A stretch of DNA of 64,000 nucleotides from Candidatus Hydrogenedentota bacterium (GTDB taxonomy: Bacteria; Hydrogenedentota; Hydrogenedentia; Hydrogenedentales; JAEUWI01): positions 11,709 to 75,708 of the forward strand of contig JAXMOL010000005.1 of NCBI GenBank assembly GCA_034669905.1, read 5' to 3'. Below are positions 27,442 to 34,318 of the stretch, one piece after another. A model generated the notes under the pieces. That model was not told the origin of the DNA, did not search any database, and worked only from the letters and a program-made list of their open reading frames with translations. A program made the position numbers and the translations under genes. Within the stretch, counting starts at the first letter, position 1. Each line of letters begins with the position of its first letter.

Positions 27442-28329
27442 TCAGCGGGTAGTTTTGTCTGTACTCCACAGCCCGGGTAGCGCGGCACTGACGAGTAATA
27501 CGCCAATCAGTATCCAACCGAGATTCCCCGTCAAGGGCGGTGACTGCTGTTGGAACAGGTGCTCCCAGATTCCGCAGGCCTGACCTGCGATGCCGCCCAG
27601 GGCCAGGGCGCAGAGCCCCAGATGCTCGGTGCGGCGCTTTATGGTGCCCAGCACCAGGCTCAAGACCATGCACAGGGCAAGCGCCCGCAACTGTGTTTCC
27701 CATAGCCCCGTAAAGTCCCCCACTTCCCGGTGCCATCCATAGAGGAGCGGGAAAAACCACAGTCCCCAACACAGGCCGACCACCAGGTTGGCGGGTAGGG
27801 CCCCCAGGGGCAAGAGTCGGGGCAGCAAGTAGCCCCGCCATCCGAATTCAGAACCCAGGGCAATCAAGGCGAAGAGCGTTGCGCCCAGTCCAATGCTGAC
27901 CAGCGGATAGGTCACGAAGATAATCCCTGGTGCCAGGGCGCGCACGTTGGGTGCGAGGGGTTCCGCTGAGACCGCCTCAACTTCGTTCAGGAGCCCTGCC
28001 AGGTTCCATTGGGGATAGGTCAGCCCCAGCAGCGTTGCCAACCCATAACTGAGTGCAAATACCCCCAGGGGCATCAGCAAGACCCGCAGTGCGGCCCCTT
28101 TCGAGATGGGCCAGAACTGCGCCAGAGGTGATGGGGCTGCAGACGGCACCATGAAGCCCGCCGCCAGGGCGGACAGGGCCGGTATCCCCATGAGTAACAC
28201 CTGTGCCAGATATTGAAAGGCATTGGGCGATTGGAAGGCGAGGGCGCCTTCGGCGAGCAAGACAAAGGTCAACCCGAAAACGAGCAAAAAACTCATGCCC
28301 AGATAGAGGGCGATACCTTTAAAATCCAT
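27442..28329 (-). CDS. Polytopic membrane protein, candidate CPBP-family (CAAX/Abi-like) intramembrane metalloprotease.
   Basis: Eight hydrophobic helices. 'LGSEFGWRGYLLP' resembles CPBP motif 1 (EExxFRG). Later 'LYGWH' and 'WEHLFQ' are possible motif 2 and 3 His positions. Start lies 21 nt after the giant-gene stop, suggesting co-transcription. Confidence 0.4.
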   Translation of the reverse strand: MDFKGIALYLGMSFLLVFGLTFVLLAEGALAFQSPNAFQYLAQVLLMGIPALSALAAGFMVPSAAPSPLAQFWPISKGAALRVLLMPLGVFALSYGLATLLGLTYPQWNLAGLLNEVEAVSAEPLAPNVRALAPGIIFVTYPLVSIGLGATLFALIALGSEFGWRGYLLPRLLPLGALPANLVVGLCWGLWFFPLLYGWHREVGDFTGLWETQLRALALCMVLSLVLGTIKRRTEHLGLCALALGGIAGQACGIWEHLFQQQSPPLTGNLGWILIGVLLVSAALPGLWSTDKTTR

Positions 28330-28350
28330 AGAGAACGTTTTAACTCCCCT

Positions 28351-31300
28351 TCAGTTTCTGGCCCGAGGTGGTGGCGGTGTCGCCCCGTCCGCTGCCGTGC
28401 CCGCTTCCACGTCTACGGATGACACGCCCGAAACTGGCTGGTACTCTACCAGGCCGTTGGCCGCGAGTTTCATGACAACGGGAAAGGTTGCATCGGGATC
28501 ACTCAGCGAAAATACAATATTCTGACTCTTGAAGGGGGCCACCGACACCGTCGCACGGCGGGGTGCGACCGTAACGGCGGGAAAATCCCTTCCCTCACCC
28601 CAGTGCTCGGGCGACGCGATGGCATCCAGGTAGCCCTTGGCGTAGACACTGCTGTTGTTGCGGATGGAAACCCGAATCTGGGCACCGTTGCGACTGGTCT
28701 CCATCACGTAGGGCGCTTCATTGGTCATGAGCACATCGCGGTAGGTCTGGCGCTCGAAGGTTGTCTCGGCCACGACCGCCATCTCCGCTTCCATGCCGGG
28801 CGTTCGGGCCAGTTGAATGGTTTCCACCTGCTGTTCCCCTGCGCCAAGACTGTAATAGACACGCTGAGGTCCGAAGGTCAGGCCCGACGTGGCCTCGAGA
28901 TTCACGGTCCCCTCCACGGTGCGATCGGTGGTGTGGTTACTCACGACCACTTCGATGGCGGGCGTATCGCCGCTCAACGTGCCCCGCAGTAAGAGGCCGA
29001 GGGGCATTTTCCGGACCGGTGCCGCACCGCGCCGCTCATCCCAGTAGCGCGTTTCCAGGACGCCGTGGGGCTCGGCCTCCCGACCGAGGCGGGCGAGTCC
29101 GTCCAAGGGCTTGGTCACATTGGGTAGAAACCACAGGGGCAGTACCTGAAACCCATTTGCCTCCAGCGATACGCCTCCGCCGGTGACCGGCCACGGGGTC
29201 TGGGGCCGCTCCAATACGTCGGTGCCCTGGGCTTCCAACATACCGGTACTGCTCTGCAGCGTACCCGACCAGCGTGCCCCCGTCGGCTCCCACGCGAGGA
29301 GGGTATAGCCATCGCGGGGATGGAAGGCGGTTCGGGTGTTCGTGGTCGTGGGAAATCCGGCTGGCTTCAAACCGCCCACCCGGAGCCCCGCGGGACTCAT
29401 TTCCAGGAAGGCCTGCGTTGCGGGCAGATCGCCTGGATGCATTTTGGTGCGTGCCACCACGGGCTTCACGTTGAATCGGGCGGCCTTCTCGGGCACCTGG
29501 GCCGAACGCCAATCGCCCTGGAAGGGAAAAATCCCATAGCGGAATCGTGACACGTCGAGCAGTTCGGCCCCGTCGCCCCCGTTGCGTTCCAGGGGCGTGC
29601 GGTGCTGGAGCCCAAGAAGGAGCCGGCCATCTTTCTGTTGTGACACGGAAAGACTGCCGGGAAAGAGCAGGGCATTCCCGCGCGACGCCTCCGGTTGGAT
29701 GCGGGGCGGCACATAGGCCGACGGCGGCAAGAGATAACGCTGGCCCGTGCGTACGGCTCGGGTAAGCTGGTCGGCCAGGTCCGCGCTCTGGGCCGGGGTA
29801 AGGCCCCCCAGCAACAGGGTCGGTACAGGGGCCACACCGTCGGGAACACGCGTATCGTTCATCAGGAGGCGTGCGCCACTTGGGATGCGGTCCACATACT
29901 CCTTCAAGGTTTCTTCGGATAATTGGGCAAGCAGGGGCCCACAAAAGCGGTTTTGATCGGGGGTACCCAACACGACCCGCATACGATAACCGGCGCGAAG
30001 ATAGTCGTTGCTATCCTGCTCGGTGGTGCTGTCCGTCCAGAGAAAGTCGGGTTTTTCCGGCGCGTCCGGTTGGAGGATGCTGGGGATACCCCGGGTAATG
30101 AGGGCCTGCTGCAACTCCCGGGCAGGCCGTTCGAGTAGTTCGTGCCCATAGACAATAATCGTGGGTTCCCAGGGCACGACGCCGCCCGACCCGACCTGAA
30201 TGGCATCGTTGGCACTCAAGGCTGCCCACTCGTAGGCGGGATAGGGTACGGTGCCCCCCACATTCTCTCCACCCCGGGTACGCAGCACGAAATCGTCCTG
30301 GCCCCGCGCCCCTACCAGCGTGCCAAAGCGTTCCCCCACGAGAAAGCTGGCGCCGTCGGGCCGAAACTGAAAGGAAGCCACGGCAGCTTTGCCCGAAAGG
30401 CTTACACGGTCCAGCGTGGTGTCACATTCGACCCAGGGGATTCCCGCGTGAAGCGTGTAACGCTGGGTCAGCGTGCCGCCCCCAAATGGCGTCTCCACGG
30501 TGATACGTTGGCGGAAGGCCGTGACCTCCGCGCGAATCGACGAAGGCGCCGGGCTTCGGCCGCTGGGAGAGCCGGTCCATAGTTCCTGTCCCGCGCGATT
30601 CTCACTCTCCCGCTCGGTGAGCAGCAGAATTTCATTGAGCGGTCCCGATGCAATCTCATCCCCATTGCGCTTATCCAAGAGCGAACGAATCGCACCCGTC
30701 GCCGGGTCGACGAAGAGTGCCAGATGCTCATTCTCGATCTGCATGTCTTCCGTCACCAGGGCACGGGAAGCCCGCTCGGCAGCCTGCACGAAATAGGTGG
30801 CGTATCCATAGGGCGGCAGGTCTTCCGCCAGGAAATCGAGGCGTTGCTCCCCTTGATAGGCTTCGCCCACGTGTGGGACGGGCGCTTCCCCTTCCGTGAC
30901 GAGTTTGAGTCCGGCGTTGGGCGCGACGGGCACTTGCACGGACACTGGAAAGGTCCCCCGACTCCCCGTCGGATTAAAAACGACAAGGGCATCGAAGAGC
31001 CCCTGATTGAGGGGCACCGTGCCCGCCGTGTCAACCAGCCCGGCGAGGTACTCGCTACTCCGTCGCAGGCTGTCATCGGTCCATTCGGCCACTTCGCGGT
31101 AGGCCGCCAGGGCATCCAGGACGTGCCCGTCGTCCCGGGGCACCCCCAGGGTTTCGGGGGTACTGTAGTAAAGCAACTGACGCCACGCGAACTCCATGGC
31201 ACTGTGGGGATAGACGGCTCCCTGCAGACTGGCCAGGGTCGCGAGACTTTCCGCGTCTTCCAACTGGCGGGCCAACTCGGAGTGAAGCCGCTGGAGCGCC

Positions 31301-33162: not shown

Positions 33163-33163
33163 G

Positions 33164-34318
33164 TCAGCGGGACTCCGTCGAAATTTGCTCGGCAGGCGCC
33201 GTTTCGGCCTTTGCCGCCCCGGCCGGGTAATACGTATGCATTCCGGTGAGGGGGCTGTAGGCACGGTTCGCCTGAAACTGGAGCACGAACAGAATAAGAC
33301 ACAGGATGGTGGTGAGCGCCACGGTGGGCCTCCCCCACGCTTCAAAGCGCATAAGCCAGGCACTCAGGGCGGCCAGGGCCACCCCACACAGCGCCAGCGG
33401 CAGGAAAAGCTGTCCCGCATTCTCCAGGGTCACATAGTCTATCGGAAGGGCCCCCGGGTAGACGCGGATGAACAACACGGCCAACACGGCGAATCGGAAG
33501 GGAGCCGATTTCACCTTAAACAGCGCCCAGCCCAGCAGCGCCATCACCCCAATACCCCATGCCCACCCCTGCCAGGCGTGGGCCTCAACGTGGGCCACCG
33601 TTTCCGGCAACAATCCGATGGGATAGAACACGAGCAAGAGGGGTCCCACGATGGCATCAAGTGTCGGCAGCTGGGCGTAGAGAATATCCAGATGGAACCA
33701 GTTCGCCACCATGGTCACCCCGAGGAATGGCAGCAGGCGCAGCCAATTGCGTTCCTCACTATCCCCGACGAAGAGTTCCATCAGAATAAGGACGCCCAAG
33801 AGCGCAGCATTGACAGCAAAAACACCCGTTGCAATGGCAAAAGTCAGTAGGGCTATCGCGAAGGGAGCCACACCGCCGTCTTGCCGCACCCGGGCATACA
33901 TCAGCAGGGTCAGCAACGCCATAAAGGTGGCCAGCCCATAGTATACGCCGGTGAGACTGAAAAGCGTCTCCGTCTTGACGGGATGGGCCATGAGGAAGGT
34001 GCCTGCCAGCGAGCCCAACCACGGAGGACCACCCACGAGTCTTCGGGTAAGCAGAAACACCAGTGCCATACAGCCGAACAAGATGGGTAAGGCGAAACCT
34101 GCCACCTCGATAATCGGGCTGCGCGCAAATGCGTCGGACCACATGGCGAGCCATGGCCAGGCGGCCGGATAGTCAAAATCCCGAGTGGTCATGCCCCCAT
34201 TGGGAAGCATGATAAGACTCGATCCGTAGACCAGGATTAGATAGAAGGTCATGGTGACGAAAAAAAATCCGGCACCGGGCTTCTTGCGGGGGGGCTTGCT
34301 GTCGTTTGTATCATCCAT
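33164..34318 (-). CDS. Polytopic integral membrane protein (384 aa, about 10 TM), first gene of an operon with the giant protein.
   Basis: ATG 34318 gives 'MDDTNDSKPPRKKPGAGFFFVTMTFYLILVYG...'. The upstream extension to 34642 is non-hydrophobic and R/A-rich, probably not coding. Stop is 1 nt before the giant-gene start. Confidence 0.55.
   Translation of the reverse strand: MDDTNDSKPPRKKPGAGFFFVTMTFYLILVYGSSLIMLPNGGMTTRDFDYPAAWPWLAMWSDAFARSPIIEVAGFALPILFGCMALVFLLTRRLVGGPPWLGSLAGTFLMAHPVKTETLFSLTGVYYGLATFMALLTLLMYARVRQDGGVAPFAIALLTFAIATGVFAVNAALLGVLILMELFVGDSEERNWLRLLPFLGVTMVANWFHLDILYAQLPTLDAIVGPLLLVFYPIGLLPETVAHVEAHAWQGWAWGIGVMALLGWALFKVKSAPFRFAVLAVLFIRVYPGALPIDYVTLENAGQLFLPLALCGVALAALSAWLMRFEAWGRPTVALTTILCLILFVLQFQANRAYSPLTGMHTYYPAGAAKAETAPAEQISTESR

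Follow-up and report, generated by a model that had tools for sequence, protein, structure and literature searches.

We analysed a 64,000-nucleotide stretch of DNA from a Candidatus Hydrogenedentota bacterium (contig JAXMOL010000005.1 of assembly GCA_034669905.1, positions 11,709 to 75,708; hereafter the window), in which three closely spaced minus-strand genes are predicted to encode a set of envelope proteins. Gene 1 (33164..34318) starts with ATG and encodes a polytopic membrane protein of 384 residues with a predicted GT-C glycosyltransferase fold. Gene 2 (28351..33162, stop codon included) starts with GTG and encodes a secreted protein of 1603 residues, here called the giant, which appears to be a pseudo-enzyme derived from glycoside hydrolase family 38 (GH38). 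Gene 3 (27442..28329) starts with ATG and encodes a 295-residue membrane protein of the CPBP/Rce1 fold whose catalytic residues are replaced. The open reading frame (ORF) list and the sequence place the genes at 34318..33164, 33162..28351 and 28329..27442, with intergenic gaps of 1 and 21 nucleotides. An earlier note, made from the sequence without database searches, had proposed this arrangement, and it also agrees with an independent gene call, since identical 384- and 1603-residue products are found on a separate, public NCBI contig of 198 kb. A terminator-like hairpin (34626..34659, minus strand) with a 13-bp stem, nine G-C pairs and a T-rich tail lies directly 3' of the preceding gene, which encodes a (GE)n-repeat protein, and is the predicted upstream border of the operon. 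An alternative GTG start for gene 1 at 34642 would fall inside this hairpin, which favours the 384-residue form. A scan for sigma-70 promoters returned two sites where 1.8 were expected, which is the chance level.

The giant is, judged by profile comparisons, a true GH38 homologue. The two GH38-like strings to which the earlier note had drawn attention are present, HYLAWERPGIAPQTAQLL at residues 464-481 and LVVFNPTGSRGTFPV at residues 726-740, and the kinship that they suggested is supported by databases. Pfam Glyco_hydro_38C matches residues 809-918 at 26.2 bits against a cut-off of 25; Pfam support for the middle domain, which the same note had also suggested looking for, falls short, with Alpha-mann_mid at 18.7 bits and below its cut-off. 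We retrieved 44 full-length homologues of about 1600 residues and 29-90% identity, the named ones all from Hydrogenedentes, and several of them match PF01074. A family profile built from 33 of the 44 matches solved GH38 structures (3lvt, 5kbp, 2wyh and Ams1) with a best E value of 9e-22, over stretches that span the N-terminal alpha/beta, middle helical and C-terminal beta domains of GH38. Since the full-length profile found nothing but GH38 in the PDB at E < 1, the additional N- and C-terminal domains of the giant are without sequence-detectable solved relatives.

The domain assignments in the cluster can be regarded as firm. The giant opens with a signal-peptide-like N-terminus (33091..33162, residues 1-24), VKGSHRIALLVLLLATILAPISTPA followed by QEQ, and the junction between A and QE is conserved in the homologues. 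Next come a jelly-roll and an immunoglobulin (Ig)-like domain (32128..33090, residues 25-345), assigned by modelling, which resemble the first two domains of GH2 glycosidases and contain an invariant WLVCGPF. The counterpart of the GH38 N-terminal alpha/beta catalytic domain occupies 31363..32127 (residues ~346-600) according to hidden Markov model (HMM) alignments to 3lvt, Ams1 and the canonical GH38 protein P0045. It is followed by the counterparts of the middle helical bundle (31063..31335, residues ~610-700; Pfam and HMM alignments) and of the C-terminal beta-sandwich (29173..31005, residues ~720-1330), the latter holding LVVFNPTGSRGTFPV and placed by Pfam, by profile alignments and by the domain map of catalytically intact relatives. 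Two further Ig-like domains of the NEW3/CARDB type (28423..28980, residues ~1395-1580) are probable from the sequence pattern and from homologues, two of which (P0038 and L029) match PF10633. The protein ends in an Ala/Thr/Pro-rich linker closing with PPPPRARN (28354..28422, residues 1581-1603). The WLVCGPF jelly-roll (giant residues ~1 to 190 or 230) also stands alone in other proteins (L040-L048) from Planctomycetota, Kiritimatiellae, Omnitrophota, Verrucomicrobiota and other contigs, and occurs in a second protein of the metagenome-assembled genome (MAG) that carries locus L009.

In SpGH38 the zinc ion is bound by H13, D15, D125, which is also the nucleophile, and H351, and D232 is the acid/base (PMC2815779); the equivalents in Ams1 are H290, D292, D402, H615 and D493 (PMC7609781). 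We mapped these sites onto the giant through three independent HMM alignments (3lvt, Ams1 and P0045), which jointly cover all of them and agree where they overlap. The first zinc histidine is T361 in the window giant, and R or T in 26 of the 33 homologues in the profile; the zinc aspartate is A363, in a column that varies widely across the same set. At the nucleophile, where the earlier note had aligned WERPG with PDTFG as our HMM alignments also do, the giant has E469, and the 33 homologues have D (15), N (9), E (4), G (2), S, R and H (1 each). The acid/base position, where GDGGGGP has become NVVAPPEP, is V556 and elsewhere mostly V, L, T or I, with A also seen. The second zinc histidine, the fourth zinc ligand, is P669, a proline in 29 of 33, and the adjacent aspartate is E670. 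That note had suspected a non-catalytic protein from the missing nucleophile; the loss extends well beyond one aspartate, to all four zinc ligands and the acid/base. Both zinc histidines and the zinc aspartate are gone in essentially all members of the family, and the scaffold motifs DE(R), RN and QxPQ of GH38 are still conserved. With losses of this kind, the giants should be unable to work as GH38 enzymes, and the view that the window giant is a non-catalytic GH38 pseudo-enzyme is strongly supported by these alignments.

Two distant relatives serve as a positive control. L029 (85-5013) and L039 (9878-14665) are about 1600 residues long and 26% identical to the window giant, and align with it over residues 1-1577, the WLVCGPF domain included. 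Each of the four GH38 Pfam domains matches both proteins with a good score, and FH.DP.W, WD.FGH and HHD stand intact in the very columns where the window giant has its replacements, with H, D, D and H at the four zinc positions. We take the two as probable representatives of the active ancestor, and their intact motifs indicate that the window clade is a branch of a family of large secreted GH38 enzymes in which catalysis was lost. One could instead suppose that the giant is still a glycoside hydrolase in which E469 serves as nucleophile of a metal-independent, non-canonical mechanism, the membrane proteins being accessory. The carboxylate at the nucleophile site (Glu in the window, Asp in 15 of 33), the conserved DER, RN and QxPQ residues and strong purifying selection are compatible with this. 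However, 14 of the 33 homologues have N, G, S, R or H in the nucleophile column, most members have a hydrophobic residue (V, L, I, A or T) in place of the acid/base, and both zinc histidines and the zinc aspartate are lost almost throughout, whereas true GH38 relatives keep every one of these residues; there is accordingly little chance that such a mechanism operates here.

The product of gene 3 belongs to the CPBP family at the level of both sequence and fold, as the earlier note had surmised: Pfam PF02517 matches it at 31.3 bits against a cut-off of 22.4, and the CPBP-like family profile matches MmRce1 (4cad) with E = 3.4e-12. All four catalytic residues of MmRce1 are replaced, E140 by S160, H173 by F192, H227 by L244 and N231 by A248. 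Canonical CPBP relatives in the alignment carry FGEEFGWRGYLL, WGLWHAP and AHxxxN; the window protein and its whole clade carry LGSEFGWRGYLL, WGLWFFP and LALGGIAGQ at these places. The EExxxR of motif 1 reads S160-E161-F-G-W-R165 in the window, and all 14 giant-linked copies have S, G, V, F or M instead of its first glutamate. The histidine of motif 2 (FxxxH, here WGLWF192FP) is F, A, L, G or Y in every one of them, and neither residue of motif 3 (HxxxN) is kept in any. The giant-linked proteins form a catalytically dead clade of their own, and the window protein is non-catalytic by sequence despite strong purifying selection (ratio of nonsynonymous to synonymous substitution rates, dN/dS, of 0.06). 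A weak match to the NCBIfam model Mrt_core was also recorded (E = 0.019).

These replacements bear directly on the model of the earlier note, by which a secreted, lectin-like giant would be matured by an active CPBP protease within a dedicated module for export and processing. The PF02517 match lies above threshold, a CPBP-like gene stands immediately downstream of the giant in 13 loci, and a clade-specific PPPPRxR tail coincides with such a gene in all eight loci of that clade, all of which would fit. With S160, F192, L244 and A248 in place of the catalytic E, H, H and N, however, the test of the catalytic residues largely refutes the model, and a dedicated processing protease is unlikely. 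CPBP-like genes are also linked to giants lacking the tail. The export half fares no better: nothing indicates export, the operon contains no transporter, and its first gene encodes a glycosyltransferase fold rather than an exporter. We consider the module very improbable. The fold of gene 1, which that note had missed, makes the assembly or handling of an envelope glycan the likelier biology, rather than secretion or processing.

The gene 1 product is predicted to have the GT-C transmembrane fold and is closest, by fold comparison, to the protein O-mannosyltransferases Pmt4 and Pmt2. A profile of its family found no match among PDB sequences, and two relatives match PMT_2, one at L002 with E = 2.8e-5 and P0267 with 33.9 bits against a cut-off of 26.1. 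An exhaustive profile search gave 136 clusters (at 50% identity) at E <= 1e-30, mostly of about 500 residues; the window protein belongs to a short subclade without the C-terminal soluble domain of ~140 residues typical of the family. In GT-C enzymes the catalytic acid lies in the first periplasmic loop, just after the first transmembrane segment. A P-L-G-R-D-Y/F motif stands right after this segment in 72 of the 86 long family members; in the window protein it is replaced by TTRDFD (R46, D47), with T-R46-D47-F five residues out of register. Conserved positions include M110-A111-H112-P113...E117, Y232-P233-x-G235-L-L-P238-E239, D294 and W328, and the acidic residues E117, E239 and D294 are retained in the window. 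The shortening and the degenerate first loop suggest that catalysis may be weakened or lost in the window subclade.

Four family members that occur without a giant carry a fused periplasmic YkuD L,D-transpeptidase domain (L058:6851-9151, L061:6887-9202, L062:5743-7965 and P0123), which ties the GT-C family to the cell-wall compartment. A rhamnosidase-like GH78 protein elsewhere in the window (41311..44241, minus strand) likewise has a C-terminal YkuD domain. Fusion of YkuD to periplasmic glycan-related proteins seems to be a trait of the lineage, and it may tether them to peptidoglycan.

The likeness to Pmt4 and Pmt2 raises the alternative that the giant is an acceptor substrate: a PMT-like GT-C protein would O-glycosylate it, for example in the Ala/Thr/Ser/Pro-rich linker, and the CPBP-like protein would help to retain or mature the glycoprotein at the envelope. 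Protein O-mannosyltransferases target Thr/Ser/Pro/Ala-rich linkers. Giants of the window clade have a C-terminal linker of this kind, and it is in this clade too that the GT-C protein has lost its C-terminal soluble domain. Yet linkage to GT-C genes is equally common for giants without a linker, and the first-loop motif is at its most degenerate in just this subclade. The overlapping stop and start codons of the two genes, moreover, would suggest stoichiometric partners over an enzyme and its substrate. Taking both sides together, we think the substrate explanation unlikely.

All three genes are under purifying selection. In a comparison with the 90%-identical orthologous locus L009, dN/dS was 0.17 for the GT-C gene and 0.06 for both the giant and the CPBP-like gene, which indicates that the dead enzymes are functional proteins and not decaying genes. 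An HMM survey covered all fetched loci. Of the 29 that could be evaluated, 22 have a GT-C gene at most 3 kb upstream of the giant; a CPBP-like gene lies downstream of it in 14 (immediately so in 13), and all three families occur together in 12. Among the seven loci with gene calls, the GT-C and giant genes overlap in L001 (4 nucleotides), L002 (11), L007 (4) and L008 (17), and are separated by 38 nucleotides in L004, 79 in L006 and 1 in the window. The earlier note had asked whether the operon partners are conserved together; they are in many genomes, among them the 12 loci with all three, but not as a universal rule, given the GT-C and CPBP-like counts above. The three families are recurrent partners in Hydrogenedentota but not obligate ones. 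An obligate GT-C and giant pair, which the first six loci had suggested, is ruled out by seven unlinked giants and by giant-less GT-C members.

That each family is also found without the others might mean that the three genes are mere neighbours with no shared function. The same gene order and the tight or overlapping junctions recur, however, in many genomes and over a range of 27% to 90% giant identity, and the giant-linked CPBP-like proteins form their own dead clade; it is therefore highly improbable that the genes are unrelated in function. In L065 (3-1792) the GT-C gene and a catalytically dead CPBP-like gene share 4 nucleotides, and in L005 (1-3583) a dead CPBP-like gene lies beside an unrelated PMT_2 protein of 822 residues, with no giant in either case, so that the CPBP-like protein may partner the GT-C protein as much as the giant.

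One specific contact between the giant and the CPBP-like protein was considered and set aside. The linker and PPPPRxR tail are confined to the clade at least 50% identical to the window giant, and in all eight loci of this clade the tail co-occurs with a CPBP-like gene. A search for such tails in the other proteins of the window and of the fetched loci found them in giants only. CPBP-like genes nevertheless lie directly downstream of tail-less giants in L017, L018, L020, L022 and L030, and near one in L031. The idea that the dead CPBP protein is a receptor for the tail was consequently rejected as a general mechanism, and it is possible as an addition specific to the clade.

Upstream of the operon lie two genes for possibly associated neighbours, a (GE)n-repeat protein of 837 residues (34682..37195, minus strand), with a pair of EF-hands and a C-terminal PGC...TM...RR tail (TM, transmembrane helix), and a paralogue of the same architecture with 864 residues (37251..39845, minus strand). 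The tail of both consists of PGC, about 17 residues, a hydrophobic helix and RR, and resembles the Cys-containing tripartite sorting signals of the MYXO-CTERM and JDVT-CTERM type. Orthologues stand directly upstream of the GT-C gene in L001, L009, L012 and L024. Genes of a second (GE)n type directly adjoin the GT-C gene in three loci (L012, L024 and L036); in L022 such a gene is its neighbour on the opposite strand.

The CPBP-like protein might accordingly serve these proteins, reading their Cys-containing tails as a receptor or degenerate sorting factor in the manner of a myxosortase. The tails of both neighbours, found again on the orthologues in the four loci named first, and the weak Mrt_core match would suit such a role, and Haft's analysis links Cys-containing C-terminal tags of this kind to neighbouring CPBP proteases. 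The same analysis also finds that myxosortases keep EExxxR, whereas in the window protein none of the four catalytic residues is left. Five loci with no (GE)n protein (L017, L018, L020, L030 and L031) still have a CPBP-like gene after the giant, and in the window the terminator-like hairpin parts the (GE)n gene from the operon. We regard this assignment as improbable. Comparison with the myxosortase and JDVT-CTERM systems shows the same balance: a CPBP-family gene near proteins with Cys-containing tripartite tails is common to both, but here EExxxR, the histidine and HxxxN are lost, about 17 residues separate the cysteine of the tag from its helix, and the linkage of CPBP-like genes to the giant is wider than that to tagged proteins.

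Several other features of the region were recorded. Synteny of the neighbourhood extends beyond the operon: the window (16610..23222) and the distantly related locus L004 each have a transglutaminase-like gene, SecA and a sulfatase close to the giant. An 800-codon ORF (30724..33126, plus strand) runs antisense inside the giant gene, where G+C is 62-64%, against 55-60% across most of the window; given the 44 full-length homologues of the minus-strand product, its presence is almost certainly due to this high G+C. On the far side of gene 3, a match to the Rfam Acido-Lenti-1 small RNA motif (27153..27197, plus strand) scores 35.1 bits, below the gathering score of 37, with E = 3.7e-5. Its place is the gap that separates the gene for a 921-residue protein from the 3' end of gene 3, and a doubtful 91-codon ORF (27177..27452) begins within it. 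No NCBIfam model matches the 921-residue protein (24148..26913, plus strand), which has only a marginal PcRGLX-like RIFT-barrel match (22.5 bits, cut-off 22.1) and is possibly polysaccharide lyase-like, of unassigned type.

Returning to the three-gene cluster, we tentatively favour, at somewhat less than an even chance, the proposal that its products form a membrane-anchored complex for an envelope glycan, the GT-C protein being the sole possible catalyst and the other two proteins scaffolds. The three proteins would assemble on the periplasmic face of the inner membrane and build or handle an envelope glycan or glycoconjugate. The GT-C protein, as the only plausible catalyst, would take the sugar that it transfers from a polyprenyl-phosphate carrier. 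The giant would supply in trans the large periplasmic module that holds the acceptor, which in other GT-C enzymes is a fused domain, and its former mannosidase cleft, jelly-roll and Ig-like domains could together form a binding platform that does not hydrolyse. The CPBP-like protein, without catalysis of its own, may serve as a scaffold by which the giant is positioned at the membrane, and might bind the lipid carrier.

Several observations weigh against this proposal. It is gene linkage from which the three proteins are placed in one complex, and the linkage has exceptions: the seven unlinked giants have no GT-C gene within 5 kb, and about 8 of 11 evaluable metagenome loci with a GT-C gene, especially those with long members, have no giant. 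The gene 1 product of the window has no Pfam or NCBIfam match, and of the 28 short GT-C members only 6 have the GRD-type first-loop motif, which is thus degenerate in the window subclade. No gene for a polyprenyl-phosphate sugar synthase was found among the large window ORFs scanned with Pfam. Loss of the zinc site removes the known mode of mannose binding of GH38, and the acid/base site of the giant, aligned through Ams1 only, is less certain than the other sites. A bolder version, which we think possible though clearly less probable, is that a GT-C protein coupled to two 'fossil' enzymes constitutes an undescribed envelope machine specific to Hydrogenedentota, possibly with all three proteins non-catalytic, in which case it would be a glycan receptor or anchor and not a biosynthetic enzyme. 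Here the GH38-derived platform might hold a glycan without cutting it, with the CPBP-derived protein as its membrane scaffold.

A published precedent for the proposed glycan complex is SagB-SpdC, the complex for peptidoglycan release in Staphylococcus aureus, in which the CAAX-protease-like SpdC orients a glycosidase non-catalytically, and for which binding of the polyprenyl carrier has been proposed. Its authors predict that other bacterial CAAX homologues scaffold proteins of envelope synthesis. Both systems have a CAAX-protease-fold membrane protein and a partner with a glycoside hydrolase fold, the former being a non-catalytic scaffold in SagB-SpdC and, as predicted from sequence and gene linkage, in the window. 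They also differ: SagB is catalytically active, as a GH73 glucosaminidase, and has a membrane anchor of its own, whereas the glycosidase-fold partner in the window is itself dead; SagB-SpdC has no GT-C component; and the host here is a member of a candidate phylum that is assumed to be diderm. Compared with the GT-C enzymes PMT/Pmt4, ArnT, STT3/PglB, AftD and Emb, the window protein has only 384 residues, no soluble domain, no Pfam match and a degenerate first loop, and its large periplasmic module would be a separate gene product instead of a fused domain. A non-catalytic GT-C fold has a precedent in PIG-U/GAB1, a subunit of the glycosylphosphatidylinositol transamidase, which is eukaryotic, belongs to another complex and has no sequence relationship to gene 1.

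Bacterial and cytosolic GH38 enzymes (SpGH38, 2wyh; 3lvt; fungal Ams1) have in common with the giant the order of an alpha/beta N-terminal, a helical middle and a C-terminal beta domain. The giant is about 700 residues longer, adds the GH2-like jelly-roll and Ig-like domains at its N-terminus and extra domains at its C-terminus, is secreted and has membrane partners, and its zinc ligands, nucleophile and acid/base are all replaced. L029 (from MAG168) and L039 (contig CAZJVP010000020) share the length and architecture of the giant but have H-x-D...W, D-x-F-G and HHD intact. No GT-C or CPBP-like gene was seen among their neighbours, L039 being evaluable and L029 on the downstream side only. In a search of the literature, we found no description of a GH38 pseudo-enzyme combined with a non-catalytic CPBP scaffold and a GT-C protein.

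Some giants of about 1600 residues are automatically annotated as alpha-mannosidases, which would inflate the counts of carbohydrate-active enzymes in a phylum known only from metagenomes. Because active relatives of the same architecture exist in L029 and L039, the loss of catalysis can be placed on a tree and compared with the gain of membrane partners. The cluster would also extend the idea derived from SagB-SpdC, that many bacterial CAAX-protease homologues may be scaffolds for envelope glycans, to a diderm phylum and to a GT-C partner.

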